NCBI GenBank assembly: GCA_046347205.1 | Contig: JAXMGN010000001.1 | Span: 750,035 to 814,034, forward strand | Origin: Pseudomonadales bacterium | Lineage (GTDB): Bacteria > Pseudomonadota > Gammaproteobacteria > Pseudomonadales > UBA7239 | Reading direction: 5' to 3' | Length of the DNA: 64,000 bases | Shown: positions 6,971 to 24,364 of the stretch, piece by piece | Layout of the letters: each line of letters starts with the position of its first letter | Numbering within the stretch: position 1 is the first letter of the stretch | Position numbers and translations under genes: made by a program | The notes under the pieces: generated by a model | Told to the model about the DNA's origin: nothing | Seen by the model: only the letters and a program-made list of their open reading frames with translations | The model's database searches: none

Positions 6971-7000
6971 ACCGTTTAATGTTCTGTTACTGGAAACACG

Positions 7001-7384
7001 ATGACTAACAAAGCCGTTATTCAAACCGAAAAAGCACCTGCAGCCATTGGCACTTATTCACAGGCAATCAAAGTGAATAACACAGTGTATTTGTCGGGGC
7101 AGATTCCCTTAGATCCTATCAGTATGCAAATGGTCGATGGCGATATGCGCGCGCAAATCACGCAAGTGTTTGAAAATTTATCTGCTGTGTGTGAAGCCGC
7201 TGGCGGCAGCTTAAAAGATATTGTCAAGCTCAATATTTTTCTGGTCGATCTCGCACATTTTGCGCTAGTGAATGAAGTGATGGCGCAATATTTCGCTCAG
7301 CCTTATCCGGCGCGTGCCGCTGTGGGTGTCGCCAGCTTACCGCGCGCAGCACAAGTGGAAATGGACGGTGTGATGGTGATTTAA
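7001..7384 (+). CDS. ridA: RidA family reactive enamine/imine deaminase
   Basis: 127 aa. [28 protein letters not shown] and [12 protein letters not shown] are YjgF/RidA signatures. The position after spoT matches Pseudomonas. Confidence 0.9.
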
Positions 7385-7402
7385 CACCGCCGTTCTTTGC
7401 CG

Positions 7403-8740: not shown

Positions 8741-8812
8741 GCAGAGGGTTCCAAGAATGTCGATAGAATGAGCAGAGATGCTAACGGAAGTCTAGGAGCT
8801 TAACCAGTTGCC

Positions 8813-9250
8813 ATGAAAGCCTTAATTCAGCGCGTTTGCAGCGCGCATGTTGCGGTGCAGGATGAAACAGTGGGGGAAATTGCGCGCGGCGTGCTCGTGC
8901 TATTGGGTGTGGAGCGGCACGATGATCGCGCGCTGGCGCAAAAACTGTGCGACAAAATTTTACGTTACCGCATGTTTGCCGATGCAGAAGGCAAAATGAA
9001 TTTGTCGGTGCGCGATATTGCGGGTGGCGTGTTGGTGGTTTCGCAATTTACTTTGGCTGCCGACACCCGCAGCGGCTTGCGTCCGTCATTTTCTTCTGGC
9101 GCAACACCCGAGCAGGCGCGGGAGCTTTACGAATACAGCATCAATTATTTGCGCCAACAGCACGCGCCTATTGCCACAGGTATTTTTGCAGCCGATATGC
9201 AAGTGCATTTAATCAACGACGGCCCCGTCACATTTTTGCTGTCGGTCTAA
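8813..9250 (+). CDS. dtd: D-aminoacyl-tRNA deacylase
   Basis: 145 aa. MKALIQRV..., SQFTL and the GPVT motif near the C-terminus (NDGPVTFLL) are present. Confidence 0.95.
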
Positions 9251-9260
9251 CAGGAAATGC

Positions 9261-9749
9261 ATGATGAAAAAAGACAGCCACGGCAAACAATTTTCCGCAT
9301 CCATGAGTGATGCTGTGCGCGAGCAATTGTTGCAAGAACAAGACGAGTGTACGTTTATTTGGCAAGGGAAAAATGATGCGCTCGGCACCATCATGAGTTT
9401 TGTGTGGGCGGATGGCTGCGTGTGGTTAACCACCAACGATCAGCGCCCGCGCGTTAATGCAGTGCGCAGAACAGGCCGCGCTTCGGTGGTGATCTCATCT
9501 GCTGGCACAACGCTGGGCGATAGTCGCTGTATCAGCCTCAGCGGCGCGTGTACGGTGTTGGATGATGCGCAGACGCGGCGCTGGTTTTTCCCGCTCTTTT
9601 GTCAAAAATTATTGCCAGACAATAGCAAAGCACAGGCAACCATGCGCGATTTGCTGGATAGAGAAGGGCAAGTGATTCTGCGTGTAAAGCCCGACAAAGT
9701 GACCGCCTATGATGGCGACGCGCTGATGCGCCAGTTAGAGGCGCAGTAA
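9261..9749 (+). CDS. pyridoxamine 5'-phosphate oxidase-like (PPOX split-barrel) family protein, putative
   Basis: 162 aa. The pattern VWLTTNDQRPRVNAVRRTGRASVVISS resembles PPOX-class flavin/F420-binding proteins. This is a weak motif-level call only. Confidence 0.45.
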   Translation: MMKKDSHGKQFSASMSDAVREQLLQEQDECTFIWQGKNDALGTIMSFVWADGCVWLTTNDQRPRVNAVRRTGRASVVISSAGTTLGDSRCISLSGACTVLDDAQTRRWFFPLFCQKLLPDNSKAQATMRDLLDREGQVILRVKPDKVTAYDGDALMRQLEAQ

Positions 9750-9774
9750 ATAAAAACACTATTGTGATAGGCAT

Positions 9775-9805
9775 AAAAAAACCGGGTTGCCCCGGTTTCC
9801 TTTTT
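9775..9805. terminator. bidirectional intrinsic terminator between convergent genes
   Basis: The sequence aaaaaaACCGGGttgcCCCGGTttcctttttc forms a GC stem. It is flanked by an A-run on one side and a T-run on the other. Confidence 0.75.
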
Positions 9806-9821
9806 CATGCTGCACGCGGCG

Positions 9822-11078
9822 TTACGCTTTTTTGCCAAACGCTCCTTTGGCTTCCATCGCAGCGATTTTTGCATCGTCGTAATTCAACACGCGCTTGAGA
9901 ATTTCATCGCGGTGTTGTCCCGGTGTCGGCGCTTTAGTTGGCACTGGCAATTCTTCACCGACAAAATGCACGGGATAGCTCATCATGTCAGCACCGTGCG
10001 TTTCGTGCGGATACCATTTGAAGCGCGCTTTGAAATGCTCGTCTTCCATTACAGTTTCTGAGTTATAGACTGGCGCAATCGGCGTTTTCACTTCTACGCC
10101 CCAATCCATCCACTCTTTGATGGTTTTGGTTTTGAAAATTTGGGTCAACTCGCGCTGCATTTCTTTGTTGCCTGGCGCGTGGTCGGCGAGTTTTTTGCCC
10201 GGCCATTTTTCAAACATATCCATGCGATTGAGTGCTTCGCAGAAGTTTTTCCAGAACGATTGCTCGGATGCCATGAATAACACATAACCGTCTTTACATT
10301 CGTAGGCTTGGTAGCGCACGCCTTCTTTCAAACCAGCAGTGCCGACTGGGCGGCGGCGGAAATCATCGGCCGCGTTGCCGGTCACTTCCGATTGCGGGCG
10401 CTGATAGGCTTTGTAGCTCTCGATGCGATACCAGTCCATGTAGGCCGCGCCGTCGGACTGACCGATCTCTACCAAAGCGCCTTCGCCGGTGTCGCGCGCG
10501 CGCATTACCGCCGCCAGTGCCGCAAACGCGCCCAATAACGGGCCAGCGTGCATGCCGATAGACGCGTGTGCTGGCAAGTACACCATGCCCTCTTCGTCGC
10601 GCGCTGGCTCTACGCAGCCCGCCCAAGTGTCATAGGCCACACCGTGTGAAGGCATGTTTTCGTAAGGGCCGGTCATGCCGTAGCCGGAGACGCAGCAGAA
10701 CACGATTTTAGGGTTCACTTTTTTCAGATCTTCGAAGCCGAGACCCAAGCGATCCAGCGTGCCAGGCTTCATCGCTTCGATGATGATGTCAGCGTCTTTG
10801 ATCAGACCTTGGAAAATTTCTTTGCCTTCTGGTGTTTTCAGATCCAACTCAATGGATTTCTTGCCGCGCGCGATGTGCCAGTGCAGCAGAGAGATGCCTT
10901 CCACGATGGGCCAAGTCATCACGCGCACATAGTCGCCGCCAGGCACTTCAACTTTGATGACATCCGCGCCCAGTTCGGCGAAATGGTGAGCAGTCGCGCC
11001 AGGGCCGAGGATAGAAAAATCGATCACGCGCAGGCCGGCGAGGGGCGCAGGTTTTTGACCAGAGCTAGAAGTGCTCAT
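9822..11078 (-). CDS. CoA-transferase family III (CaiB/BaiF) protein
   Basis: LAGLRVIDFSILGPGA..., the GADVIKVE motif and overall length fit family III CoA transferases. The ATG at 11078 (MSTSSS) is preceded by GGAGA. Confidence 0.85.
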   Translation of the reverse strand: MSTSSSGQKPAPLAGLRVIDFSILGPGATAHHFAELGADVIKVEVPGGDYVRVMTWPIVEGISLLHWHIARGKKSIELDLKTPEGKEIFQGLIKDADIIIEAMKPGTLDRLGLGFEDLKKVNPKIVFCCVSGYGMTGPYENMPSHGVAYDTWAGCVEPARDEEGMVYLPAHASIGMHAGPLLGAFAALAAVMRARDTGEGALVEIGQSDGAAYMDWYRIESYKAYQRPQSEVTGNAADDFRRRPVGTAGLKEGVRYQAYECKDGYVLFMASEQSFWKNFCEALNRMDMFEKWPGKKLADHAPGNKEMQRELTQIFKTKTIKEWMDWGVEVKTPIAPVYNSETVMEDEHFKARFKWYPHETHGADMMSYPVHFVGEELPVPTKAPTPGQHRDEILKRVLNYDDAKIAAMEAKGAFGKKA

Positions 11079-11286
11079 GCAGTTCTCCATTGATTTCATA
11101 GGGATTTATGGGGCGGGGGTGCGCCCGCAAAGGGCTGGGCATTGTACTCGCTAGTTGCGGTTTTTTGCGGTGCGCGCGCGATTTTCACTGTGTCGGGCAT
11201 TCAGGTAAGATAGCCACCCCGCCTGCATGGGCGTTGTTCTACTTCCTTTCTGACATCGGAGATCGGCCACCGCCGACAGGAACACA

Positions 11287-12870
11287 ATGAGCGCAATCGA
11301 AGATACCAAGGTTTACAGCGAACTGACCTCAGCCGCATTGATTGAACAAGCACTGCTGCGCCGTGAAGGCACACTGACTAACACGGGCGCGCTGTTGATT
11401 ACTACAGGCAAACGCTCTGGGCGTTCTCCTAGCGACCGTTTTGTGGTGCAAGAGCCATCAACGGCAGACGCTATCGATTGGGGCAATGTCAATCGCCCGT
11501 TCCCGCAAGATAAATTCAATGCACTGTGGGATCGCGTTGAAGCGTATCTCGCGCAAAAAGATCGTTTCTCGTCACAGTTGCATGTCGGCGCGCACGACGA
11601 ACATTACATTCCCGTTAAAGTGAACACAGAAACCGCGTGGCAGGCATTGTTTGCACGCAACATGTTTATCCGCCCTGAAAAATACAATCCAAAAGGCAAA
11701 GAAGAGTGGACGATTTTGAATGTCGCTTCTTTTCAGTGTGATCCCGCACGCGATGGCACCAATTCTGACGGCATCGTTTGCTTGAATTTCGCCAGCCGCC
11801 GCGTGCTGATTGCTGGTATGCGTTACGCCGGTGAAATGAAAAAAGCGATGTTCTCGGTACAAAACTTTTTGTTGCCAGAAAAAGATGTCATGCCTATGCA
11901 TTGCTCGGCGAATGTCGGTGAAGCGGGCGATGTGGCCTTGTTTTTTGGGTTGTCTGGCACAGGCAAAACGACTTTGTCTGCTGACCCTGCACGCTATTTG
12001 ATCGGCGACGACGAGCACGGTTGGGCAAAAGGCGCTGTGTTCAATATCGAAGGCGGCTGCTACGCAAAAACTGTCGATTTGTCACAAAAAAACGAGCCTG
12101 TGATTTGGGATGCGATTCGTTTTGGCAGCATCGTGGAAAATGTGCATGTCGATAGCAGTCGCCAAGCGCATTACAGCAATTTAGAAATTACTGACACCAT
12201 CGACGGCCAAACGCGCAATGTGGAAAACGGCCGCTGCTCTTATCCCTTAGAGCATGTAGCGAAGCGCACTGTGGCGAATGCTGCCGGCGAACCGAAAGTC
12301 GTGATTTTCTTAACGTGCGATGTGTCTGGCGTATTGCCACCCGTTTCTATTTTGTCGAAAGAAGCAGCGGCGTATCACTTTTTGTCGGGCTACACCGCGC
12401 GCGTCGGCTCTACCGAAGTGGGCGCAGCTCCTGGCATTCAACCGGCATTTTCTACCTGCTTTGGCGCACCGTTTATGCCGCGTCGTCCGATGGAATACGC
12501 GAAGTTGTTGATGAAGCGCGTGGAAGATTTCGGCTCGCAAGTTTATTTGGTGAACACCGGTTGGACTGGCGGTGCCGGTGGTCCTGGCGGCAAAGGTCAT
12601 CGCTTCCCGATTCCGGTTACGCGCGCCATCGTCAACGCCTGCTTGAGCGGTGAATTGCTGAAAGGTGACACCGAACAGTTGGAGCATTTGAATCTGACGG
12701 TGCCTAAAGCCATTAAAGATGTGGATAGCAAATACCTCAACCCGCGCAACGCGTGGGCAGACAAAGCCGAGTACGATGCGCAAGCGAAAAAACTCGCTGG
12801 TCTGTTCCAAGAAAACATCAAAAAGTTTGATGTTAGCGAGGCGGTACTCAACGCGGGACCCAAGGCGTAA
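11287..12870 (+). CDS. pckA: phosphoenolpyruvate carboxykinase (ATP)
   Basis: 527 aa. It has the kinase-1a loop [19 protein letters not shown] and NIEGGCYAK. Confidence 0.95.
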
Positions 12871-12904
12871 CTGCCGCAACCTGCTGTTTAGGTTCTGCAC
12901 ACAA

Positions 12905-12934
12905 AACGCCCCGCATGCGGGGCGTTCTTGTTTC
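12905..12934 (+). terminator. intrinsic terminator after pckA
   Basis: AACGCCCCgcatgcGGGGCGTT is followed by cttgtttc. Confidence 0.8.
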
Positions 12935-12985
12935 TGGATGCCGCTATACTGCGCGTAAACCTATTTGTTGATGGTGCAATCCGTG

Positions 12986-14524
12986 ATGCGCAACTCCCAC
13001 CGTTTTTTTCTCGCTCTCTGCCTGCTATTTTTTGGTATTACTGCTGCGGTGCAAGCTGCACCTGATGACAAAGATGGCGATCGCCTCAGCGATGCATTGG
13101 AACAAACCGTGGGACGTAACCCAGAGCGCCCTGATTATCTCATCAGCACCGGCTATCGCCGCAGTTGTGCGCTGGATGACAGCGGCGTGCAGTGTTGGGG
13201 CGATGAACCGCGCATGGGTATCACGCCCGGATTTAGTCACCCGTTTGTACTCAGTGTTAGCAATACCCACGCCTGCGTGATTGGTGACAACGGCGTGCAA
13301 TGTTGGGGCGACAACACGCACGGCGAAACCACTGTGCCGCCACTCAACAAACCGGAAGCCGTGAGTGCCGGTTGGTATCACAGTTGTGCCGTTGATGCGA
13401 AAGGCGTGAAGTGTTGGGGCGATAACAGTCGCGGCCAATTGGATGTGCCGAAAAAATTAAAAAATGTAAAACAAATTGCCGCGGGTGGATTTCACACCTG
13501 TGCGTTGGATGAAAAAGGTGTGACCTGTTGGGGCGATAACTGGGCGCATCAATTGGATGTGCCGGCGTTGGTGAATCCACATCAAATTACATCAGGCAAT
13601 CATCACAGTTGCGCCTTGGATGATCGCGGTGTCGTGTGTTGGGGTGATATTTATTTTGATGAAACCGAACGCAATCCCGATGTGATGAAAAATTATAAAA
13701 CACGCGTGGTGCCATTGCTGCAAAATCCGCGACAAGTCAGCGCCGGTTTCGATCACACTTGCGCAGTGGATGACAGCGGCGTGGTGTGTTGGGGTGCGCG
13801 CGATCGCGGGCAGTCCGATCCACCGAAAGATTTATTAAAACCACCGGTGGCAGCGATCAGCGCGGGTTGGTACAGCACTTGTGCACTGGATGCGGTCGGC
13901 GTGAAATGTTGGGGCGACAACACCAATAAACAAACCGAAGTGCCGCCTTTGTTTTTTGATGCGGATCGCGATGGCATTCCCGACGACAAAGACAATTGCC
14001 CACATATCGCCAATCCGGATCAGCTGGACACCGACAAAGATGGACAAGGTGACGCCTGCGATCCTGATGACGATAACGACGGCGTAGCCGATGATTTGGA
14101 TAATTGCCCATTAGTGGCCAATCCAGACCAAAAAGATAGCGATGGCGATAAAGTGGGCGACGCTTGCGATGCTTTTCCCAATGATCCGACAGAGTGGTCT
14201 GACAGGGACGGCGACGGTGTCGGTGACAACCGCGACAACTGTCCTGATGTCGCCAATCCCGATCAAAAAGATACGGATGGCGATAAAATTGGCGATGCCT
14301 GTGACACCGATAACGACAATGACGGTGTGCCAGACGACAAAGACAATTGCCCTCTGGTTGCGAATCGCGATCAAAAAGATACTGACAAAGATGGGATGGG
14401 CGATGCTTGTGACGACGACGATGACAACGACGGCATTCCCGATAAGCAAGATAAAGAGCCGTTAAAACCGGCGAAAAAGAAAGCACCGACAAAAACAGCA
14501 GCAAAAATCGGTGTGTCGCAGTAA
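12986..14524 (+). CDS. secreted protein with RCC1-like beta-propeller repeats and C-terminal thrombospondin type-3 (calcium-binding) repeats
   Basis: Signal peptide is [26 protein letters not shown]. There are seven repeats centred on V.CWGDN..GQ..VP with HSCAL/HTCAL strands, an RCC1/ATS1-like pattern. Repeated D.D.DG..D..DNCP...N.DQ.D.D.D..GD.CD units follow. Upstream alternative starts exist at 12965 and 12971. Confidence 0.8.
13958..14452 (+). repeat. intragenic tandem coding repeats (TSP type-3 units)
   Basis: Units recur at DNA level, for example gacaattgccc...gccaatcc.gatcaaaaagata..gatggcgataaa.t.ggcgatgc.tg.ga. They encode the DNCPxxANPDQKDxDGDKxGDACD repeats. Confidence 0.8.
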
Positions 14525-14537
14525 CAAAAAAATAGCA

Positions 14538-16406
14538 TTAAAAAAAACTGCGCAGGGAGATCAGAAACTGGTCGCGTTGCGCAGCATACGTTTCCTGATG
14601 TGCGTATGAAAAATAAACCGACAGATCGCGCGTCAAGCGATAGCCCGCTTCTGTTTGAAAAGTCGTGAGCTTGTCGCTGTCATTGATTAAATAATATTGC
14701 TGACTCATATCGGCAGACCAACTCCAATACGGCGTTTGATACAGCAAGCCCGCGCGTGCGCCGGCGCGCATATCCCAAGCGTGATCGAGCGCGCTACCCG
14801 TGAGTGCGCCGCCGATAATTTCTGCATGACACAACAGGTTGCCACAGTTTTTGGTGATGCCGCGATAACCTTCGGCAATATTGACCAGTGATGTTTTCTC
14901 GTGAATCAACTCGCGTTGCCGCGCTGCTGACAGCCCCCACGAAGCATCTTGAAAAAAAACATCGGAAGGATTGTAAGACTGCACAGCAAACCAGCGTATG
15001 CGATCGAGACTGACGCGATCATCGTGTTGATACGGGTCTAGTCGCAGTTGAAAATCCAGCACTTCCAATTGCACGCCTTTTTGAAAGGCGGGCAGCGGAT
15101 CGTGAAAATCGTGATAGGCAAAACGCCCGCCAAGAACAAGATAATCTTTGCCGCTATCGTGCTGCCAACCCGTTTGTAAACGCAGCATGTCGTGCCCATC
15201 GGTGGTGGGTTCCGCTGCTGTGATAGGCGTTTTTACTGCTGGCACGGAGTTTTTTATTTGATACTGGTGCTGCACAAGTTGGTTCACTTGTAAATTGTGT
15301 GGCGCTTTTTTTGCAGGGTCTACTTGCACTTGAATACTGCGGTAATTTTCTGCCAGTGCCAACACTGTGCTGTCGTTAACATTGTCCAGTGTCGCAGGAG
15401 TTTTTAGCAGTTTTTTGAATGCTACTTGTTGTGAAGGCGTGAGCTGCGCCAGTTGTGCGTAAAAACGCTTTCTGGCGGAGGGAATGTATTGTGTATTAGC
15501 AATCAAGCCCTGTGCTTGCAATGCTTTGACGGTATCAACAGGAATAGTATGAGTGGTAAATTGTGTGCGTAAGTTATGCGTCGGTGTGATGACATCCAAC
15601 AAGGAAATTAAACGGTAAGAGCAATTTTCATCGAGAAAAAAATAATTGAAGCTGCTACCGCGTACCTCCCACACATGATCGACAAACAGGCGAACTTTTT
15701 CTGGCGTGAATGTAAGACGGTATTCGCGTATGTCGCGGTCTTGGTCGTCGCTGTAAGCGCGCAATTTTTCAAAGTAAGGTGCCAAATCAATAATGCCAGG
15801 AAAATGCCCAGTCAAACCTTTGGCGATATAGCGCACGGTACTGTTGTCTGCAGCGCCCACGTCAGCGTAGTAACTGATGGTTTGTGACAGTAATACGGGG
15901 TGAGTATTTTTGTCACGTGCGTCGATGCGCAAAAAGGTATGCCCGAAAATAGAGGCAATTTTTTTTAGATAAGGATCTGGGTACACCAGTGTAATTTCTT
16001 CGGCAGAAAAACGGCTGCGCCAGTAATCCAGAGCAGAGCAGTGCAGATTTTCTGGTTTGTGCAGAGAAAAATATTGTGTCAAAAACTGCGCGCGCGCTGG
16101 AAAACGACACCAAGCGCTGCCATTCCCTTCAATGGGTGAACGCAATGCCTGTAGTGTGGCATTCAGTTCTGCTTCACTGTCGTCTTTCTTGCCAGAAAGA
16201 AAAAAATCTTTAGCATCCACTTCGCTGTGATAAGTGCCGGTGAGCGCATTTTTTTGCATATGCAGCAGAGCCAACCATTGCGGTGCAGTAGCCAAGGACG
16301 CAAGAGCAGTCGGCGGCATCGTGCTTGCCTGTACGCGCGCACAACACAGCAAGCCCGGCGCAGCGCAAGCAAGGTATAGGCAGAATACGGTGAGGCAATG
16401 GCGCAT
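14538..16406 (-). CDS. DUF4105 (Lnb N-terminal periplasmic domain) family protein
   Basis: The block IFGHTFLRID...ISYYADV...YIAKGLTGHFPG...FFLDENCSYRL matches my recollection of DUF4105. I chose the ATG at 16406 (MRHCLTVFCLYLACAAPGLLCCARVQA, signal-like) over the GTG at 16451. Confidence 0.65.
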   Translation of the reverse strand: MRHCLTVFCLYLACAAPGLLCCARVQASTMPPTALASLATAPQWLALLHMQKNALTGTYHSEVDAKDFFLSGKKDDSEAELNATLQALRSPIEGNGSAWCRFPARAQFLTQYFSLHKPENLHCSALDYWRSRFSAEEITLVYPDPYLKKIASIFGHTFLRIDARDKNTHPVLLSQTISYYADVGAADNSTVRYIAKGLTGHFPGIIDLAPYFEKLRAYSDDQDRDIREYRLTFTPEKVRLFVDHVWEVRGSSFNYFFLDENCSYRLISLLDVITPTHNLRTQFTTHTIPVDTVKALQAQGLIANTQYIPSARKRFYAQLAQLTPSQQVAFKKLLKTPATLDNVNDSTVLALAENYRSIQVQVDPAKKAPHNLQVNQLVQHQYQIKNSVPAVKTPITAAEPTTDGHDMLRLQTGWQHDSGKDYLVLGGRFAYHDFHDPLPAFQKGVQLEVLDFQLRLDPYQHDDRVSLDRIRWFAVQSYNPSDVFFQDASWGLSAARQRELIHEKTSLVNIAEGYRGITKNCGNLLCHAEIIGGALTGSALDHAWDMRAGARAGLLYQTPYWSWSADMSQQYYLINDSDKLTTFQTEAGYRLTRDLSVYFSYAHQETYAAQRDQFLISLRSFF

Positions 16407-16469
16407 AAAGAATTGACAGAAAACACGAAGGCAGTATTGTAGCGATAACACAGCTTATGCAGAGATGTT

Positions 16470-16877
16470 ATGCGGCTTCATGGTTTTTTTCGTGCAATAG
16501 GGCTGCTGTGTGCAGGCGTGGCATCTTCTGCCGTAGCAGATAACTGTGTGTTGCGCCCCCTTGCCGAATCCATGCAGCGGCCCGCTGTGCGCGCCGATGA
16601 ACCGCAGCACACAGAATGGGAATACCGCCGCCAACTCCTGCGTTTTGCCAACGGTTTTTACGGTGCAATCTCACAAGATATTTTGCGTGGCAACGGAGAA
16701 TATTTACAAACTTTGCAGCAATTGATGGGTTCAGAAGGTGAGCCGTGTGTGCCTATGTACCGTCAGCTGTTGCTGCAAGAACCCAGCAGCCAAGATTTTG
16801 CTCTAGCGCTGTGGTCGTGGCGCATAAACCACGGTGCTAACACTGCGCCAGCGCAGGATTGGGGCAGCGTGCATTAG
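16470..16877 (+). CDS. hypothetical secreted protein
   Basis: 135 aa with signal peptide MRLHGFFRAIGLLCAGVASSAVA/DN. It is divergent from the DUF4105 gene. The segment RGNGEYLQTLQQLMG faintly recalls DUF3015, which is not enough for a call. Confidence 0.45.
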   Translation: MRLHGFFRAIGLLCAGVASSAVADNCVLRPLAESMQRPAVRADEPQHTEWEYRRQLLRFANGFYGAISQDILRGNGEYLQTLQQLMGSEGEPCVPMYRQLLLQEPSSQDFALALWSWRINHGANTAPAQDWGSVH

Positions 16878-16942
16878 CTCCATAGGCAAGCTATGAATAG
16901 GTGTGATAAGTTTCAAACCAATCATCAGAAAAAGGTTGTTTT

Positions 16943-17425
16943 ATGCCAGTGCAGTACGGAACCAAACGCAGAGTGCCGCCAACGAAAGTGCTGAATGGAA
17001 AGGCGGCGTTAGCTTATGTGGATGATGTCGCCATCATGATTACCACCATCGAAAAATGGACAGACAAAGACATTGTGCAATTAATGGAAGAGAGCGCGCG
17101 TCTGGGCAAGCGCGTTACTGCGCCGGCGGCGATTACGCATTTTATGGGCGAGACTTTGGGCGCAGCGGCTTCACAGCGCAAGTTAGTGGTGGACTGGATG
17201 GCGACCAATAATATCGACCCTACGCCGCGCACCATCACCATGACCGATTCTGCCTTGATACGCGCCGCGTTGACGGCGTATTCGTGGCTCACCAAAACCG
17301 AGATGAAAGCGTTCGCGCAAAAAGATTTGCTGACTGGATGTCAGTGGTTAGTGCGCGATTTAGAGACAAAACCTGAGGATGTTTTACAAGCTGTGCAGGG
17401 CTGTTACAAGTTATTAGGCAAATAA
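16943..17425 (+). CDS. uncharacterised ~160-aa protein, paralog 1 of 3
   Basis: Shares with the next two ORFs the blocks GKA..A.V.DV..I...I.KW, QRKL...W, R.ITM.DS.LIR..LTAYSWLTKTE.KAFA.KD and LLGK. Confidence 0.7.
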   Translation: MPVQYGTKRRVPPTKVLNGKAALAYVDDVAIMITTIEKWTDKDIVQLMEESARLGKRVTAPAAITHFMGETLGAAASQRKLVVDWMATNNIDPTPRTITMTDSALIRAALTAYSWLTKTEMKAFAQKDLLTGCQWLVRDLETKPEDVLQAVQGCYKLLGK

Positions 17426-17439
17426 AGCAGGTAACAATT

Positions 17440-17925
17440 ATGTCCAGTTATGATTATTCCAAGACAGTGGTTAAACCCACCTTGCTACTAAAAGGTAAAG
17501 CTTGTTTTGCACAGGTACATGATGTCACGTTGATCGTTAGTGATATTCCAAAATGGAGCAATGAGTTGGTGCTGGAATATCTCAATGGCATGATAAAAAT
17601 TGGCGGCGGTGTGTCTGTTCCTGCTAGCGCCGCCATTTTTTTGGGCGATAGCTTTGATGCCGGGCAGCGCAAATTGTCTGCAGACTGGATTGCCGAGAAC
17701 GGGTTTGAGCCGGCAAAACGCATCACCATGATTTCGGATTCGCTGTTAATTCGCGGCTCGTTAACAGCGTATTCGTGGTTGACGAAAACCGAAGCCAAAG
17801 CATTCGCCATGAAAGATCACGCGGCTATGTGCGATTGGATAGCTAGGGGAAGAATAGCTAAAGCAGAGGATATTCACGCGGCACTACTGGCATCTTTCCA
17901 GTTGCTAGGAAAGAAGTTGCCGTAA
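17440..17925 (+). CDS. uncharacterised ~160-aa protein, paralog 2 of 3
   Basis: 161 aa. The start lies 14 nt after paralog 1. By eye it is roughly three quarters identical to paralog 3. Confidence 0.7.
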   Translation: MSSYDYSKTVVKPTLLLKGKACFAQVHDVTLIVSDIPKWSNELVLEYLNGMIKIGGGVSVPASAAIFLGDSFDAGQRKLSADWIAENGFEPAKRITMISDSLLIRGSLTAYSWLTKTEAKAFAMKDHAAMCDWIARGRIAKAEDIHAALLASFQLLGKKLP

Positions 17926-17999
17926 CATTGGCCATTGCGTAAAAAAACGTCTCAGACTGATCGAACAACGAAATAAAAAATGCTGGGGATATTCGAGAA

Positions 18000-18488
18000 A
18001 TGCTGAGTGACGCTGAATACAGCAAAATAGCGGTTAAACCCACCGCCCTGCTAAAAGGCAAGGCGTGCTTTGCGCAAATACATGATGTCACCATGATTGT
18101 CAGCACCATTCCCAAATGGAACGATGCGCTGGTGTTGGAGTATCTCAACGAAGTTACCAAAGTGGGCGGAGGCGTGTCTGTGCCAGCCAGTGTGGCGATT
18201 TTTTTGGGCGATGTGTTTGACGCAGGGCAGCGCAAATTGGCGACAGAATGGACAACAGCTCAAGGATTTGAACCCGCAAAACGTATCACCATGATTTCTG
18301 ATTCCCTGCTCATTCGCGGCGCACTCACCGCGTATTCTTGGCTGACAAAAACTGAAGCAAAAGCATTTGCCATGAAAGACCATATGGCTATGTGCGAGTG
18401 GATTACACGCGACCGCATCGCCAAAGCACCTGATGTGCATGAAGCACTGGCAACGTCCTTTCATTTGCTGGGCAAAAAACTGGCATAA
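18000..18488 (+). CDS. uncharacterised ~160-aa protein, paralog 3 of 3
   Basis: 162 aa. Same conserved blocks as the other two copies. A strong terminator follows. Confidence 0.7.
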   Translation: MLSDAEYSKIAVKPTALLKGKACFAQIHDVTMIVSTIPKWNDALVLEYLNEVTKVGGGVSVPASVAIFLGDVFDAGQRKLATEWTTAQGFEPAKRITMISDSLLIRGALTAYSWLTKTEAKAFAMKDHMAMCEWITRDRIAKAPDVHEALATSFHLLGKKLA

Positions 18489-18520
18489 AAAAGCCGACGC
18501 GAAGTCGGCTTTTTTGTTTT
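18487..18520. terminator. bidirectional intrinsic terminator
   Basis: The sequence aaaaaaGCCGACgcgaaGTCGGCttttttgtttt lies between the convergent paralog-3 gene and the pterin-binding methyltransferase gene. Confidence 0.85.
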
Positions 18521-18539
18521 AACGCGGCGGCTAAATAAA

Positions 18540-19472
18540 TCAGCTTTCGCTGTTTTCCGCTTTAGCTGCACGGCGCGCTTCGCGTTCGGCTTTTTTGCGA
18601 GCTTTTTCTTCTTCCTGCGCTTTCTGTTCAGCCAGGCGCGCTTTTTGGTCGTCGCTCATTGGGGTGAGCAGCAAGCCATCGCGGTGCGCTTGGATATACT
18701 TGCCGCATTTCTCGTCTTCACCCATCAGCGCGCGAATGGCGTAAATCATGGCGCGCATTTCTTTCACGCGTGGGTTAATCATGAAGCCTTCCATGCCATT
18801 CGCTGCGAGCATCGCTACATAAGTGCGGTTCATCAGTGCGCGGTGTGGCATGCCGAAGCTGACGTTAGACAAACCGCAGAAGGTGCGCACTTGTGGGAAT
18901 TCGGCTTTCATCATTTGCAATAAATCAAAACTGATGGGGCCCACGTTGTCGTCTGTGCCCAGCGGCAGAATGAGCGGATCAATCCACAAATTGTGATCGG
19001 GCACGCCTGCATCGCGCGATTTCGCCACCAATTCTTTGCAGATAGCAAAACGGCCTTTGGCGGTGTGGTTGATGCCGGTGTCATCCAACAACAGGGCCAC
19101 AATGCCAGTGTTGTATTTGGCAGCCAGCGGCAACAAGTTTTGCGCGCTGCCTTTTTTATTGTTGATGGAGCTGAGTACTGGGTACTGACCTTTCCAATCA
19201 ATCGTTTCCATTGCGTGTTTGAGCGCGGGTGGGTTGGAGCTATCCAACACCATCGGAATATTAGTGACAGCGCGCACGCTTTCAATCATCCACGGCAAGT
19301 CAATCAACTCGTCGCGGCCGGTCACTTGTGCATTGAGATCCAAATAATCGGAATCTGCTTCCACTTGCTCTAAAGCAACTTTTTGGATGTAAGCAGTGTC
19401 ATGCGCTTTTACCGCATCACAAATTGCAGGAATGGTGGCGTTCAATGATTCGCCGATAACAACAACGGCCAT
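18540..19472 (-). CDS. pterin-binding methyltransferase (methyl-corrinoid:tetrahydrofolate methyltransferase, MtgA/AcsE/MetH-pterin-domain-like)
   Basis: MAVVVIGESLNATI...YLDLNA...MVLDSSNP...ICGLSNVSFGMP-type blocks are characteristic of the pterin-binding (DHPS-like) TIM barrel. GGAGAA sits 5 nt before the ATG. It carries an unusual Lys/Glu/Ala-rich C-terminal tail. Confidence 0.8.
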   Translation of the reverse strand: MAVVVIGESLNATIPAICDAVKAHDTAYIQKVALEQVEADSDYLDLNAQVTGRDELIDLPWMIESVRAVTNIPMVLDSSNPPALKHAMETIDWKGQYPVLSSINNKKGSAQNLLPLAAKYNTGIVALLLDDTGINHTAKGRFAICKELVAKSRDAGVPDHNLWIDPLILPLGTDDNVGPISFDLLQMMKAEFPQVRTFCGLSNVSFGMPHRALMNRTYVAMLAANGMEGFMINPRVKEMRAMIYAIRALMGEDEKCGKYIQAHRDGLLLTPMSDDQKARLAEQKAQEEEKARKKAEREARRAAKAENSES

Positions 19473-19510
19473 ACGGTTCTCCGTTTTCTTAACAATAAAA
19501 AGTGATAATG

Positions 19511-19545
19511 AAAATAAAAAAGGCTTCTCTCAATAGAAAGAAGCC
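19511..19545 (-). terminator. intrinsic-terminator-like hairpin inside the operon (possible attenuator/processing site)
   Basis: The minus strand reads GGCTTCTttctattgagAGAAGCC followed by TTTTTTATTTT. It lies in the 89-nt gap between the MtmB-like and pterin-binding genes. Confidence 0.55.
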
Positions 19546-19561
19546 TCGCTGTGGTGTGAAC

Positions 19562-20950
19562 TTATTTCAGCGCTTTCAGACCCATGTCATACAGTTCTTG
19601 TTTGACACGGTTGTAGTCTTCCATCAACGCTGGTTTCGGTTCGCATTTTTCGCAATCGTAAGCATCTTTGAAGTGGCGCGGGCCAGCACCGCTGGCTTTG
19701 TGTTTCTCTGTTTCTTCGTTGCGTTTGGCGAAGATTTTGTTCATCAAAATGTCCGCTTCTTTGGGGTCTTGTACTTCCAAAGTCGCCTGCATCACTTCGC
19801 CAACCAAACGGGTTTCCAAACCGGAGTGACCGCCGATCCACACATAACCCATGCCGTTGATAGTGTTGGACACTGTCATCGCCTGCGCCTGCCAGATACC
19901 GGCGTAAGTGCGCCAGTACGGCTCCATGCCGGCACACACTGAAGCGATCGGTAGTTTGACGTGGCGTTCAAACGCGCGTGTGGCAGCAGCAACAGCCCAC
20001 TGCGTTTCTTGATCGGACCAAGTACCGTCCAAGTGGTTGGCGAACATTTGCGTCATGCCGCCGTGGCCATAAGACAACTGACCGAGGGCGTTGCACACAA
20101 TGCCGATGGCCGTCTCTGCGCCGTCACGACAAATGGCGCCGGTGAGCGATACGCAAGATGTCCACGGCTCAATACCGCGATCTTGGCAATATTTCGCCAT
20201 CATGAACGCGTTCCAGTCGATTTTCATTTCAGGAATGATGTGGATGCCGATTTGTGTGTTCCATGTTTTGCGGCGATCAGGATTGTGATCATCGATGCAC
20301 GCAAAAGAAGCGGCGGCAGACGATGCGGTGCACAACAAACCTTGGTGCATACCAGGGCGACCTTCTTCGCGACAGATGCGTTGAATCTGTGCGCATTCCC
20401 ACTGTGCGGCGTACATTTCAGACAATGTGCCCGCTTTGGCAGAGTGACCGTGGATCACTTCGATACCGCCGGTAATGCCCATCGCTTTATTGGTTTTTTC
20501 TTTTACGAAAGAACGGATGTACGGGTCGTGCCAATCTTCACCGATAACACCGCAAGGACCGCCGGCAAGAATTGGCAATTTTTTCTCGAACGCTTTACGG
20601 TAGGTGTATTCGATACGATCTGCGCCTTCACCAAACTTCGATACGCGCGGATTCGAGTTGTAGAACTCTGCCGTGTCGCGAATTTCCTGTTCGGTCAGCG
20701 CGATAACGCGAAACGTGTTGTTGTGATAAATGCCGCACTCTGCCAACAATTTAACCGCCGCGTTGAAAACGCCGTCAGCAATCTCGTCAGAAATGACAGT
20801 ACTGTCCGGCGTGTATTTCACACCGAACTCTTCAGCGGCTTTGCGCAAGGTGCGTGACCACTTGATGTCAAACTTGCTGGATTTTTCAAATACTTCGCCA
20901 GTTTCAGCGCGGTTTTGAAACTCCATAATATCCATTAATTTACCGGCCAT
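19562..20950 (-). CDS. MtmB (monomethylamine methyltransferase) family protein lacking pyrrolysine; substrate:corrinoid methyltransferase of unknown substrate
   Basis: Several blocks resemble my recollection of Methanosarcina MtmB: KLLAECGIY, EEGRPGMHQG (cf. AGRPGMGV-Pyl-G), GLETRLVGEVMQAT, and the C-terminal ...YNRVKQELYDMGL. The ORF is uninterrupted, with no in-frame TAG. The ATG at 20950 overlaps the corrinoid-protein stop (TAATG) and is preceded by GGAGAG, so the track start at 20992 is rejected. Confidence 0.75.
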   Translation of the reverse strand: MAGKLMDIMEFQNRAETGEVFEKSSKFDIKWSRTLRKAAEEFGVKYTPDSTVISDEIADGVFNAAVKLLAECGIYHNNTFRVIALTEQEIRDTAEFYNSNPRVSKFGEGADRIEYTYRKAFEKKLPILAGGPCGVIGEDWHDPYIRSFVKEKTNKAMGITGGIEVIHGHSAKAGTLSEMYAAQWECAQIQRICREEGRPGMHQGLLCTASSAAASFACIDDHNPDRRKTWNTQIGIHIIPEMKIDWNAFMMAKYCQDRGIEPWTSCVSLTGAICRDGAETAIGIVCNALGQLSYGHGGMTQMFANHLDGTWSDQETQWAVAAATRAFERHVKLPIASVCAGMEPYWRTYAGIWQAQAMTVSNTINGMGYVWIGGHSGLETRLVGEVMQATLEVQDPKEADILMNKIFAKRNEETEKHKASGAGPRHFKDAYDCEKCEPKPALMEDYNRVKQELYDMGLKALK

Positions 20951-21609
20951 TATGCTGCTCTCCCAAAGTGTGCTGCCATAATATTTTTGCAAAGTGTGAC
21001 GGCTTCCATCGCGTTAGGTGCCCAGCCATCAGCGCCCATCATGTTGGATTTTTCTTGATTGGTTTCTGCGCCGCCCATCACCACTTTGAATTGATCTTGC
21101 AGACCCATGTCGTGCACATAGTTCACAACATCGCGGCAGTTGGGGATGGTAGTGACCAAGAACGCCGACAAACCGATGATATTGGCTTTCTTTTCTTTGG
21201 CGGCGTTGATGAATGCCATGGAATCCACATTCACGCCCAGTTGATGCACTTCAAAACCAGCGAGTTCCAATTGCTTGGCGACCAGGCCGTAACCGATGTC
21301 GTGCAAATCGCCAGACACCGCGCCGATCACCACCACGCCTTGGCGCTCGCCATCAGACGATTTAGGCAAATGCGGGTTGATGATTTTGATGCAGTTTTCA
21401 GCGAGTTCACCGCCCACCATCAATTCTGCAAGAAAATATTCTTTGGCTTCAAACAACTGACCAATTTTTTCCAAACCTTTGACGACACCATCTTTTAGTA
21501 CAGACACCGGATCCAAACCTGCGTCCAGACATTCTTGTACCAACTCTGCCGCTTCGTCGTCGAGATCGGCAATCAGTTCGGCAATTTCTGCAATATCGTT
21601 TTGATCCAT
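20950..21609 (-). CDS. cobalamin-binding corrinoid protein (MtmC/MtgC-like)
   Basis: 219 aa. An N-terminal helical cap domain is followed by a Rossmann B12-binding domain. It carries the DxHxxG motif (GAVSGDLHDIGYGLV) and downstream S.L and GG motifs. Confidence 0.85.
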   Translation of the reverse strand: MDQNDIAEIAELIADLDDEAAELVQECLDAGLDPVSVLKDGVVKGLEKIGQLFEAKEYFLAELMVGGELAENCIKIINPHLPKSSDGERQGVVVIGAVSGDLHDIGYGLVAKQLELAGFEVHQLGVNVDSMAFINAAKEKKANIIGLSAFLVTTIPNCRDVVNYVHDMGLQDQFKVVMGGAETNQEKSNMMGADGWAPNAMEAVTLCKNIMAAHFGRAA

Positions 21610-21653
21610 GGTGCTCTCCTCAGTATGTAGTGCGTGGTAATTTTGTTGGTCGA

Positions 21654-23729
21654 TCAGGCTGCTGTGCGTTCGCGGCGGCGGCGGCGTGATTCGGTGTCCG
21701 GTGGCGCGGGCTGAATACCATAGCGCGCCAGCGACGGAAATGCATGTTTTTTGTGGGGCAACAGCGTGGCATCGACAAAGTGCGGGACAAAGCTCGTCTC
21801 GTTGGTCAGTTCCACATAGTGAATGCGGCGTGCGATGTGTTCGGCCTCTTCGCGTTTTGCGCGATTCATCAGTGCCATGCGCGCGCCATCACCGGCGGCA
21901 TTGCCCACCGAGTGTGTGTTTTCAAAGCCAACATCTTGGAACAAGCCAATCATCAGCGAGCGCCGCAGATCAATGTGCGAGCCGAAGGCACCGGCGAGGA
22001 TGACTTTTTCCGGCTTGTCGCGCCCCAGTTTATCGAGCAGCACTTGGATGCCGGAGTACACCGCGGCTTTTGCCAACTGCACATTGCGCACGTCGTCAAT
22101 GGTCATGGTGATGTCGCGACCGAGCGCGGTTTCATTTGCCCATGCAATCACAAATTCGGGATCGCCGTCTTCACCACGCCGCAAACGCGGCGTTTCTATT
22201 TCCATATTGAATTTGCCATTCGTGGCGAGAATACCTGCTTTGTATAACTCACCTACGGCGTCGATGATGCCAGAACCGCATAAACCAATTGCACCAATAT
22301 CAGTCGCTTCTAAACGCGTATTCCACGCTTCTTTACCGATAACCTTAAAACGCACGTCGTAATTTTTTTCCACGCGTACTTTTTCAATCGCACCGCGTGC
22401 GGCGCGCACGCCGTATTTGATATTGGCACCTTCCAATGCGGGCCCTGTGGGGCAAGACGTAGAATAAATTTTGTCGCGGTTGCCCACCAAAATTTCACCG
22501 TTGGTGCCGATGTCCACAATCGCTACCAAGTCATCCGAGTTGTAAGGTTCTAGCGCAATCGCCACAGCGGTATTATCCGCGCCGACAAATCCCGCTTGGT
22601 TGGCCAACAAATGCACATTGATAGATGGCAATACATTCGTTAAATGTAAATCGCGCGCTTTCACGTTTACAGAATGTGCGATGCGTGGATTGAACGGCGA
22701 CTTGCCGAGCGAATCAGGATCCAAGCCGAGAAAAATATGGTGCATACAGGTATTCGCCACCAGCACAATTTCACTGATGTCTTCCGCTGCATAACCAGCG
22801 GATTGCGTCACGCGATCCGCTAATTCGCTCAACGCACCGGTGACTGCTTTTTGCATGCGATCCAGTTTTTCTGGATTATCACTCGCAGCGATGCGGTTCA
22901 TCACGTCGTCGCCGCCAATGCGAATTTGCGGATTCATTAATGATTCTGTTGCCAGTGTTTCACCGGTGTGCATATCACACAAATACGAAGCCATGGTGGT
23001 GGTGCCGAGATCAACCGCCAAGCCCAACCACTGCTGTGTGGTGTCGCCATTTTCAATGCGAATAATTTCACCTGCTTGATTTATTTCAGGTGTCCACACG
23101 GTAGCGGTGAGCTGCATCACTTTTGCGCGCTGTGGTTTGGCGAGATCGCTCAATTGTTTCAACGCAGTGAAATCGATACGCGCATCAATACCGTGTTCAG
23201 CTTTGAGTGCATCGCGCAGGCGTTCGAAATCGCCGCGATGATCTGCCAGTGTTGGTGCTGGTACGGTAACAAAATATTTGCGCGTCACAGGATCGCGCAC
23301 CGCCACCGGTTTACCTGCCGCTTTGCGCACAATCGCTTCGCGCACGCGTGCTTCTTCGGGAACAAAAACCACCGCGTCGCCGAGTACGCGTGTTTGGCAA
23401 CTGAGCCGTTCGCTGGTTTTGTACTGGTGTTTGCGCGCCAGTTTTTGTTCGTGTTCGCTGGCCGGTGTGACGTGTGATTCACGCGAGCGCAGCCCGTGGC
23501 GTGTGGCGGCCGTGACCATATGCCCCATCGACAATTCATGGCCTTCGTCGTCAAAGGTACCGTCCAACACTTGGCATTTGCATTTGGCACAAGCGCCGGT
23601 GCCGCCACAAATGGATTCAATGCCCACGCCCAATTCACGCGCAGCGGTGAGCAGCGGCGTACCAGCGGCAAACTGCCCTTTCTGACCGGAGGGCAGAAAC
23701 AGCACATCGTATTTCTCAACGGCACTCAT
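21654..23729 (-). CDS. RACo-type reductive activator of corrinoid proteins ([2Fe-2S] ferredoxin domain + ASKHA ATPase)
   Basis: The N-terminus is a plant-type ferredoxin (SICGGTGACAKCKCQV). The long C-terminal part has actin/sugar-kinase-like phosphate motifs (LAVDLGTTT, VDIGTNGE). Size (691 aa) and architecture match RACo/COG3894 rather than the RamA 2x[4Fe-4S] type. Confidence 0.8.
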   Translation of the reverse strand: MSAVEKYDVLFLPSGQKGQFAAGTPLLTAARELGVGIESICGGTGACAKCKCQVLDGTFDDEGHELSMGHMVTAATRHGLRSRESHVTPASEHEQKLARKHQYKTSERLSCQTRVLGDAVVFVPEEARVREAIVRKAAGKPVAVRDPVTRKYFVTVPAPTLADHRGDFERLRDALKAEHGIDARIDFTALKQLSDLAKPQRAKVMQLTATVWTPEINQAGEIIRIENGDTTQQWLGLAVDLGTTTMASYLCDMHTGETLATESLMNPQIRIGGDDVMNRIAASDNPEKLDRMQKAVTGALSELADRVTQSAGYAAEDISEIVLVANTCMHHIFLGLDPDSLGKSPFNPRIAHSVNVKARDLHLTNVLPSINVHLLANQAGFVGADNTAVAIALEPYNSDDLVAIVDIGTNGEILVGNRDKIYSTSCPTGPALEGANIKYGVRAARGAIEKVRVEKNYDVRFKVIGKEAWNTRLEATDIGAIGLCGSGIIDAVGELYKAGILATNGKFNMEIETPRLRRGEDGDPEFVIAWANETALGRDITMTIDDVRNVQLAKAAVYSGIQVLLDKLGRDKPEKVILAGAFGSHIDLRRSLMIGLFQDVGFENTHSVGNAAGDGARMALMNRAKREEAEHIARRIHYVELTNETSFVPHFVDATLLPHKKHAFPSLARYGIQPAPPDTESRRRRRERTAA

Positions 23730-24364
23730 GCCATTTCTCCCGTGCCGAGCATATGGCGCGCCACACGCTTCAACTCTTGTTTGTAGGTGTCTAGCCGCGC
23801 CACGGTTTCGCTATTGGCCAGTAGGGGCGCATCCATAATGAAGAACATCGACGCGCCGGCGAGAATCGACCAGAACTGCACGGGGTCGATGGCGCGGAAG
23901 GCGTTACTGCGACGACCTTCATCCAAAGTGCCGATCAAACGGGCAAACATGGGGTCGACAAACTGCTGCACCTCAGGGCGCAAACCGCCCTCGGAGCCAG
24001 CCACTTCGCGCATAAAAAGGCGCATCAGGGTGGGGCGCGCGCCTGCGAAGTCCAACCACGCTTCCACGGCTGCTTCTACACGGGCGGGCAGGTCGAGCGA
24101 GGAATCCAGCGCCGCGCTGATGCGGTCATTGAGCTGGGCAAATAGCCTCTCCAATACTGCGTTGTACAGCGTTTCTTTGTCTTGAAAATGATAGATCACT
24201 GCCGTGCGCGTAATGCCTACGTCTTCGGCGATGTCTTCTAAACGCGTGGGGTAAAAGCCGGTGGCGGCAAAGCGCAGCTCCGCCGCGCCGAGTATCAACT
24301 CGCGTGTTTCGTCCGCCTTAAGGGTAGTGCGGCGGGGGAGTGGGGCTACAGAACTTACTGACAT
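23726..24364 (-). CDS. TetR/AcrR family transcriptional regulator
   Basis: The N-terminal HTH reads ILGAAELRFAATGFYPTRLEDIAEDVGITRTAVIYHFQDKETLY. Its stop overlaps the start of the activase gene by 4 nt. Confidence 0.85.
   Translation of the reverse strand: MSVSSVAPLPRRTTLKADETRELILGAAELRFAATGFYPTRLEDIAEDVGITRTAVIYHFQDKETLYNAVLERLFAQLNDRISAALDSSLDLPARVEAAVEAWLDFAGARPTLMRLFMREVAGSEGGLRPEVQQFVDPMFARLIGTLDEGRRSNAFRAIDPVQFWSILAGASMFFIMDAPLLANSETVARLDTYKQELKRVARHMLGTGEMA

Follow-up and report, generated by a model that had tools for sequence, protein, structure and literature searches.

Three tandem paralogs in a Pseudomonadales genome are divergent relatives of the DUF3478 branch of STAS-like proteins

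A 64,000-nucleotide stretch of contig JAXMGN010000001.1 from the Pseudomonadales bacterium assembly GCA_046347205.1 (positions 750,035 to 814,034 of the forward strand; referred to here as the window) contains three head-to-tail genes for small proteins to which an initial annotation, made from the sequence alone, could assign no family. These proteins are divergent, unannotated and outlying members of PF11964/DUF3478, or form a sister subfamily to it. PF11964 is the 'SpoIIAA-like' family, formerly DUF3478, and represents a widespread branch of the STAS superfamily with two crystal structures. The evidence presented below establishes homology and fold, an old duplication, purifying selection on every copy, a stable order of orthologous genes and a variable copy number. 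With respect to function, we put at roughly one in two the probability that the copies are sub-functionalised cytoplasmic STAS/DUF3478-type modules which bind a ligand or a partner.

The three genes were compared pairwise by BLASTP. Copies 2 and 3 were 76-77% identical (E 4e-95), and copy 1 was much more diverged, with 42% identity to copy 2 (E 6e-45) and also 42% to copy 3, as had been estimated by eye in the initial annotation. A three-way alignment gave 60 invariant columns, and the paralogy of the copies is far beyond chance. The shared motif blocks that had been listed were all present (GKA..A...DV, I.KW, QRKL...W, DS.LIR..LTAYSWLTKTE.KAFA.KD and LLGK), with a slight slip of register in the one written as R(I/T)ITM(I/T)DS, which reads RTITMTDS in copy 1 and RITMISDS in copies 2 and 3. 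All three open reading frames (ORFs) begin with ATG, and they are separated by gaps of 14 nt (copies 1 and 2) and 74 nt (copies 2 and 3); the ORFs and the RNA folding described below agree with the number, lengths and spacing of the genes, and with the single strong terminator, as first reported. As had also been noted, no signal peptide or transmembrane segment was found in any of the three copies (maximum Kyte-Doolittle value over a 19-residue window 1.1-1.6; polar N-termini), and the products are predicted to be small soluble cytoplasmic proteins. Horizontal transfer of the array was considered and rejected, since its GC content, both overall and at third codon positions (GC3), matches that of the surrounding genes.

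When the three proteins were scanned against Pfam, NCBIfam, PADLOC and PHROG, nothing was found at threshold: PADLOC gave no match for any copy and PHROG nothing significant. PF11964 itself, for which the gathering score is 25 bits, did not match the window proteins even at E<=10, the STAS families PF01740 and PF13466 did not match any copy at E<=10, and no Pfam match to CRAL-TRIO was obtained. Marginal matches to DUF7469/Npun_F0813 for copy 1 (E 0.004-0.014) and to gnd for copy 3 were treated as noise. Sequence searches of the PDB using a three-sequence profile, a 71-sequence profile or the single member P0064 returned matches only at chance level, such as TPR and MCM9, and the tie to solved structures therefore comes solely from fold comparison.

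Relatives of the window proteins were few. A word-indexed search of 5.8 billion protein clusters produced only 29 close relatives, all without names and originating mostly from metagenomes or from metagenome-assembled genomes (MAGs) of Cellvibrionales/Pseudomonadales. Further word-index protein searches added few more, cluster look-ups of the relatives returned 'hypothetical protein' names only, and a scan of GTDB genomes by peptide pattern gave only two loci, too few for a broad taxonomic picture. An exhaustive search of 1.84 billion representative proteins with a subfamily profile hidden Markov model (HMM) recovered 166 proteins at E<=1e-3 (42 of them at E<=1e-10, 9 at E<=1e-30), which with few exceptions are 145-185 aa long. 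The family is rare and mostly metagenomic, and its wider consensus reads ...P.A.QR(K/R)... R.A..TDS.L.RGA.TA..WL ... AF...D...A..WL.

It was through the more distant members that the window proteins could be joined to PF11964. This Pfam family was matched at E<=0.1 by 49 of the 71 aligned family members (best E 1.8e-8), and six members, P0060, P0064, P0072, P0084, P0093 and P0107, scored above the 25-bit gathering cut-off (25.2-31.8 bits). The same six are found by the subfamily profile (E 4.4e-12 for P0060, 1.6e-11 for P0064 and 2.1e-10 for P0072). Alignment of the close subfamily with the distant group by hhalign gave a probability of 99.9% and E 1.5e-37 over 154 columns. Because of the Pfam matches of members, the members passing the gathering score and this profile-profile comparison, PF11964 and the window proteins are judged to be solidly, if transitively, linked on sequence grounds, though the window proteins themselves are below the Pfam cut-off. 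The initial annotation had found the C-terminal half faintly reminiscent of SpoIIAA/STAS-like DUF3478 proteins, a hunch now supported by the transitive HMM links and by two AlphaFold models with a DUF3478 structure as the top match. It had also foreseen that profile searches might lead to a well-characterised family; the family reached, PF11964, is functionally uncharacterised. A literature search on PF11964 and on 'STAS SEC14 domain-containing' found nothing, and one on DUF3478 found only a TOPSAN note and one incidental mention; the relevant paper is a structural one (PMC2954212).

AlphaFold2 modelled copy 2 with a pLDDT of 93.4 and a pTM of 0.88, and copy 1 with a pLDDT of 93.9. Both models have the topology b-b-b-a-b-a-b-a-b-a-a (b, strand; a, helix), with strands at residues of about 10-16, 21-26, 29-34, 62-67, 94-98 and 118-122 and helices at about 41-55, 74-86, 102-115, 124-135 and 142-155. 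Contained within this is the SpoIIAA-like core b1-b2-a1-b3-a2-b4-a3-b5-a4, which is preceded by an additional strand at the N-terminus and followed by an additional helix at the C-terminus. In Foldseek searches of the PDB both models matched 2q3l first (probability 0.99, E 0.008-0.016, TM-score 0.43-0.58), which is Shew_3102 (YP_001095227.1) of Shewanella loihica, the open form of DUF3478; the other crystal structure, 2ook, is YP_749275.1, and the SCOP grouping is Sfri0576-like. RsbS, SpoIIAA, SiaC, stressosome STAS domains, MlaB, alpha-tocopherol transfer protein and Sec14 followed in rank. This list, obtained with predicted models, is coherent, came out alike for two paralogs and is in line with what the sequences show.

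The likeness to PF11964/DUF3478 comprises the core topology, the top fold match of both models, the distant relatives that pass the Pfam cut-off, the character of small single-domain cytoplasmic proteins, and an analogous C-terminal signature (beta4 'R.A..(T/G)DS', beta5 'AF', alpha4 'A..WL'). In contrast, the window proteins are about 35-40 aa longer, owing to the N-terminal strand and C-terminal helix, fall below the Pfam threshold and are encoded in arrays of 3-5 genes. The structural cluster described for DUF3478 consists of a beta4 Ala/Gly, a beta5 Phe and an alpha4 A-x-x-W-L (PMC2954212). The present family shows an analogous R.A..TDS / AF / A(C)..W(L/I) pattern. Judged by motif inspection, the window copies have Thr or Ile at the beta4 Ala position and Cys131 where alpha4 has Ala, a Cys that is invariant in the narrow subfamily, and they retain F122 and W133-(I/L)134. 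On alpha2 the window proteins carry (G/S/N)QRKLxxxW and no AAWDD, again by motif inspection; an invariant QRK...W stands in place of the AAWDD 'switch', and conservation of alpha3 greatly exceeds that in the Shewanella group.

Conservation within the family was concentrated on two helices. The near-invariant segment DS-x-L-I-R-G-A-L-T-A-Y-S-W-L-T-K-T-E corresponds to predicted helix alpha3 with its flanks, and the most conserved part of the family is the D100-S101 turn followed by alpha3 (SLLIRGxLTAYSWLTKTE), in which copies 2 and 3 do not differ and copy 1 differs from them only slightly. On alpha2, Q76-R77...W83 is invariant, and the residue preceding Q76-R77 varies across the family (G/S/N/K/W/T/A). 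Copies 2 and 3 agree at 35 of the 37 residues of the alpha3 block, with different codons at 14 of these 35. The differences among paralogs are found in alpha1, the C-terminus of alpha2 and alpha4-alpha5.

For the evolutionary analysis, loci of relatives (given here by L numbers) were obtained by exact-protein look-up and a pattern scan, array phylogeny was examined with a neighbour-joining tree and an identity matrix, and the ratio of non-synonymous to synonymous substitution rates (dN/dS) was estimated by the Nei-Gojobori method. Three copies were present in L001-L006 and in L009, four in L011, four together with one frameshifted copy in L012, and a tandem pair of distant members in L018, a Sandaracinaceae MAG; L007, L013 and L015 are single copies elsewhere in the genome. 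Copy number thus ranges between 1 and 5. In related Cellvibrionales/Pseudomonadales MAGs, each of the three window copies has an ortholog at the corresponding position. Orthologs of copy 1, termed A-type, are 98% (L011), 90% (L012), 86% (L001) and 59% (L009) identical to it, with a dN/dS of 0.02-0.05; B-type orthologs are 92% (L011), 85% (L001) and 83% (L012) identical to copy 2 (dN/dS 0.09-0.10); and C-type orthologs are 98% (L011), 93% (L001) and 62% (L009) identical to copy 3 (dN/dS 0.03-0.05). Across all orthologs dN/dS was 0.02-0.10, and a value of 0.096 was obtained between copies 2 and 3, the comparison that had been suggested as a check. By these estimates every copy is under strong purifying selection, and no diversifying selection is seen.

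The initial annotation had proposed an old duplication followed by a recent one. The second cannot be called recent, because dS for the pair of copies 2 and 3 is about 1.9, different codons encode 60 of the 123 identical residues, the longest identical nucleotide run is 15 nt, and the two have separate orthologs in relatives. The B/C duplication is accordingly old, older than the split of the lineages of the window, L001, L011 and L012, in which PEPCK is 95% identical. The codon differences and the short identical runs also led us to reject gene conversion between the two copies. In L009, identity was 57-62% for the array versus 82-91% for PEPCK and the methyltransferase genes, and the paralogs evolve faster than the flanking genes. 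A shared alpha2/alpha3 face combined with differences elsewhere fits sub-functionalisation of the paralogs; it does not fit dosage or an arms race.

A further 'D-type' copy occurs in L011 and L012 and is absent from the window. L011 is the closest relative of the window here (flanking proteins 89-99% and array copies 92-99% identical), and its D-type fourth copy (6454-6945) lies between A and B, where the window has only the 14-nt gap; as judged from gene order, the lineage of the window has probably lost this copy. L012 is without a C-type copy, and one slot of its five-slot array (6445-6944) is split into overlapping fragments, 6445-6750 and 6693-6944, of a D-type copy, which is either a frameshifted pseudogene or an assembly error. 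In L018 two distant members (166 and 170 aa) stand in tandem at 6001-7065 beside a patatin-like gene, and tandem duplication has therefore arisen more than once in the family.

The crystallised DUF3478 proteins have the topology b1-b2-a1-b3-a2-b4-a3-b5-a4, form dimers and show open and closed states of alpha2 and alpha3 (PMC2954212). These two helices form a mobile lid, the opening of which makes a hydrophobic cavity of 1743 cubic angstroms, and they were proposed to serve in membrane association and ligand uptake (PMC2954212). A resemblance to CRAL-TRIO/Sec14 was noted in the same work, which led to the proposal that nonpolar ligands are transported (PMC2954212). The window models share part of their fold with alpha-tocopherol transfer protein and Sec14p (3w67, 7zg9, 9yv3; query-normalised TM-score 0.40-0.46), but these are much larger eukaryotic domains, the target-normalised TM-score is 0.2-0.32 and there is no sequence similarity; the comparison is one of mechanism by analogy only.

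Each window copy is thus a single SpoIIAA-like alpha/beta domain of DUF3478/PF11964 type, extended at both ends. By analogy with the crystallised proteins, we propose that the copies probably act as dimeric binding modules. The lid helices alpha2 and alpha3 would give access to a cavity in which a small nonpolar or amphiphilic ligand could bind, or would provide a docking surface for a partner protein. The working site would most likely be the alpha2/alpha3 face, since this carries the near-invariant alpha3 segment and the invariant Q-R-K...W of alpha2, and since 2q3l, which both models match, is the open form, and alpha2 and alpha3 are long in both models. Keeping this face and varying elsewhere, the paralogs may have one ligand or core partner in common and differ in their secondary contacts, or may form hetero-oligomers.

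Several observations weigh against this reading. Scanned directly, all three window proteins stay below every Pfam and NCBIfam threshold, and the Foldseek E-values are modest (0.008-0.016), with TM-scores of only 0.43-0.58. The switch residues of the Shewanella DUF3478 proteins (H6, G7, Y34 and A-A-W-D-D on alpha2) are not recognisable by motif inspection, alpha2 having QRK...W. The invariant residues R77, R94, D100, S101, R105, K116 and K120 are polar or charged, and a surface for binding a protein or an anionic ligand would account for them no less well than a pocket that is purely nonpolar. Finally, we know of no experimentally shown function for any member of PF11964, and the ligand-carrier idea is itself a hypothesis drawn from two crystal structures.

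Features of the array and of its immediate surroundings are presented in Table 1.

Table 1. Coordinates of the array and adjoining features in the window.
Feature	Position	Strand	Description
Copy 1 (A-type)	16943..17425	+	ORF, 160 aa; most divergent of the three; always the first gene of the array in relatives
Copy 2 (B-type)	17440..17925	+	ORF, 161 aa; STAS/DUF3478-like paralog
Copy 3 (C-type)	18000..18488	+	ORF, 162 aa; type nearest to the single-copy genes of other lineages
Intrinsic terminator hairpin	~18485..18517		14 pairs; A-run upstream, T-run downstream; closes the array
Small secreted protein gene	16470..16877	+	135 aa, N-terminal signal-like segment; no Pfam match; 65 nt before copy 1
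Sigma-70-like site	16413-16440		10/12 positions match; upstream of the small secreted protein gene
Convergent operon	18540-24364	-	TetR regulator, RACo-type activase, B12-binding corrinoid protein, MtmB-family methyltransferase, pterin-binding methyltransferase

The hairpin that closes the array has a core stem of GCCGAC/GTCGGC, lengthened by pairs between the flanking A-run and T-run, and RNA folding of the 51-nt stretch 18480-18530 gave a minimum free energy of -19.9 kcal/mol (z -2.67). It lies 22 nt from the stop of the convergent minus-strand gene for the pterin-binding methyltransferase (18540). Because of the symmetry of its A-run and T-run and its position before that stop, the hairpin is probably bidirectional and would also end the convergent operon. 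A simple terminator scan did not pick it up, the T-run having probably been absorbed into the stem; an Rfam scan of 16300-18700 gave only sub-threshold terminator-like matches at the hairpin, and the sigma-70 and terminator scan overall was at background level.

The order of genes in relatives is PEPCK, RCC1/TSP3-repeat protein, (Lnb_N, small secreted protein), array and convergent methyltransferase operon. In the window, 12965-16877 forms a variable islet which encodes a secreted RCC1-repeat/thrombospondin-type-3-repeat protein, very acidic with a net charge of -47, an Lnb_N/DUF7840/DUF7843 protein and the small secreted protein; the islet proteins evolve much faster than the flanking PEPCK. 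The gene for the small secreted protein may be co-transcribed with the array, which is uncertain, and is not a member of the family. It precedes the array in L001, L011 and L012 (63-90% identity). A link between the array and the adjacent secreted protein or the DUF4105 (Lnb_N) gene, envisaged in the initial annotation, was not upheld: both genes are absent beside the array in L009, the more distant relative. The convergent operon is conserved at 82-99% identity in L001, L009, L011 and L012. Its corrinoid reductive activase of RACo type has Fer2 and RACo domains, and its MtmB-family ORF (PF05369, E 1e-37) contains no in-frame stop and is therefore a non-pyrrolysine MtmB homologue.

The other window genes examined are housekeeping genes, among them those for SpoT, PcnB, L,D-transpeptidases and Pit/PhoU. 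The family profile detected no fourth copy within the 64-kb window. An ORF of 162 aa at 9261-9749 on the plus strand, between the genes for D-Tyr-tRNA deacylase and a CoA-transferase and with no Pfam match at E<=1e-5, was ruled out as a fourth paralog since the family profile does not detect it. Across the ten kinds of neighbourhood examined, no recurrent neighbour or partner gene was found. Some neighbours are of lipid type (START-like/SRPBCC in L016 and L021, patatin in L018, LpxK in L015), a weak hint which is not relied on. In L007 (JGI 3300021182, 6477-16472) a single-copy homolog, with 56% identity to copy 2, has a divergent MCP gene on one side and a Che-like cluster (response regulator, CheX, response regulator, CheA-like, FimW_N) on the other, with two unannotated genes (477 and 142 aa) in between; the same contig also holds a second, dispersed copy (L013).

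Among other explanations, the one that survives best, although we consider it unlikely, is that the proteins are non-phosphorylated STAS-type regulators comparable to MlaB and RsbS, which would bind and modulate a partner encoded elsewhere in the genome, and the three paralogs might combine in a hetero-oligomeric hub. RsbS builds the scaffold of the stressosome, and SiaC and MlaB are STAS-like proteins that regulate a diguanylate cyclase and an ABC ATPase (MlaF), respectively; these examples show that modules of this kind can control a variety of partners. Consistent with a role of this kind, STAS regulators are among the fold matches (RsbS, SiaC, MlaB 6xgz and stressosome STAS domains), the invariant surface residues R77, R105, K116, K120 and D100 are charged or polar, tandem multiplicity recurs (3-5 copies here and a pair in the Sandaracinaceae MAG), and a single-copy homolog stands beside an MCP gene and a Che-like cluster. 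The best structural match, however, is to the DUF3478 branch and not to RsbS or MlaB, and the ten kinds of neighbourhood examined have no partner gene in common. While SiaC (DUF1987) and MlaB match in fold (6kko, 7e6g, 6xgz), they are encoded with their partners (SiaABD, MlaFEDB), and the window family is without such partner genes in the neighbourhoods examined.

Classical anti-sigma-factor antagonists of the SpoIIAA/RsbV type, in which an anti-sigma kinase phosphorylates a Ser at the start of alpha2 and a PP2C phosphatase resets the protein, share their fold with the window proteins (SpoIIAA, RsbV and RsbS have it in common; Foldseek probability 0.8-0.96 for 1th8/1til and 6jhk), and are likewise small stand-alone single-domain proteins that often occur as several paralogs. 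We nevertheless regard this identity as highly improbable. The window family has no sequence match to PF01740 or PF13466, and the variable residue before alpha2 leaves it without a conserved Ser/Thr at the N-terminus of that helix to act as phospho-acceptor. The conserved D-S pair sits at the beta4-alpha3 junction, as in the DUF3478 motif 'A.VGd(s)', and not as in the DSSG of SpoIIAA. Furthermore, no anti-sigma Ser kinase (HATPase_c) or SpoIIE/PP2C phosphatase was found among the approximately 35 larger ORFs scanned at window positions 1087-46409, and such genes were not consistently present in the loci of relatives examined. A phosphoserine partner switch of SpoIIAA type is disfavoured as the mode of action.

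A role of the array in the adjacent corrinoid-dependent methyltransferase system, where its products might for instance carry or chaperone a hydrophobic cofactor or substrate, is very doubtful. The idea draws on the convergent operon and common terminator region adjoining the array in the window and in L001-L006, L009, L011 and L012, and on the large heterocycles that DUF3478 cavities were proposed to hold (PMC2954212). Convergent orientation, however, means that the two are not co-transcribed, and descent accounts for the synteny, because the arrangement is confined to closely related genomes (PEPCK 87-95% identical). In addition, the array evolves much faster than the operon, as the L009 identities given above indicate, and the single-copy homologs in L007, L013 and L015, as well as distant members, are without such neighbours.

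A tandem immunity or antagonist array, or a defence-related diversifying cassette, as had been suggested in the initial annotation, is scarcely credible: tandem small paralogs of variable copy number, the frameshifted copy in L012 and the placement of the array in a variable islet between conserved genes would all suit it, but diversifying selection is not seen at a dN/dS of 0.02-0.10, orthology by position is stable, PADLOC and PHROG matches are lacking, base composition is native, and upstream of the array, where the neighbours are RCC1/TSP3-repeat, Lnb_N and small secreted proteins, no toxin domain and no toxin, Rhs, CdiA or secretion gene was seen.

The binding modules proposed here might be taken one step further, to A, B and C paralogs, stable in position and alike in an invariant alpha2/alpha3 face but divergent in their outer helices, that together form a hetero-oligomeric STAS-like sensor or carrier for a specific amphiphilic or anionic small molecule, possibly feeding or sensing the neighbouring non-pyrrolysine MtmB/corrinoid methyl-transfer pathway or the upstream envelope proteins. 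This extension is a long shot; if true, it would provide the first function for the DUF3478 branch of the STAS superfamily. The value of the present analysis is more modest, in that 'STAS/DUF3478-like' replaces 'hypothetical' for these genes and no new kind of system is described. A rare outlier subfamily which is missed by current models is now defined, and it tends to old, selectively maintained tandem arrays. Its signature, QRK...W, then TDSxLxRGAxTAxxWL, then AF...D...(A/C)..W, directs attention to the alpha2/alpha3 lid face as the functional site and supplies residues to mutate, and the array offers a tractable three-gene set for the study of DUF3478 binding.

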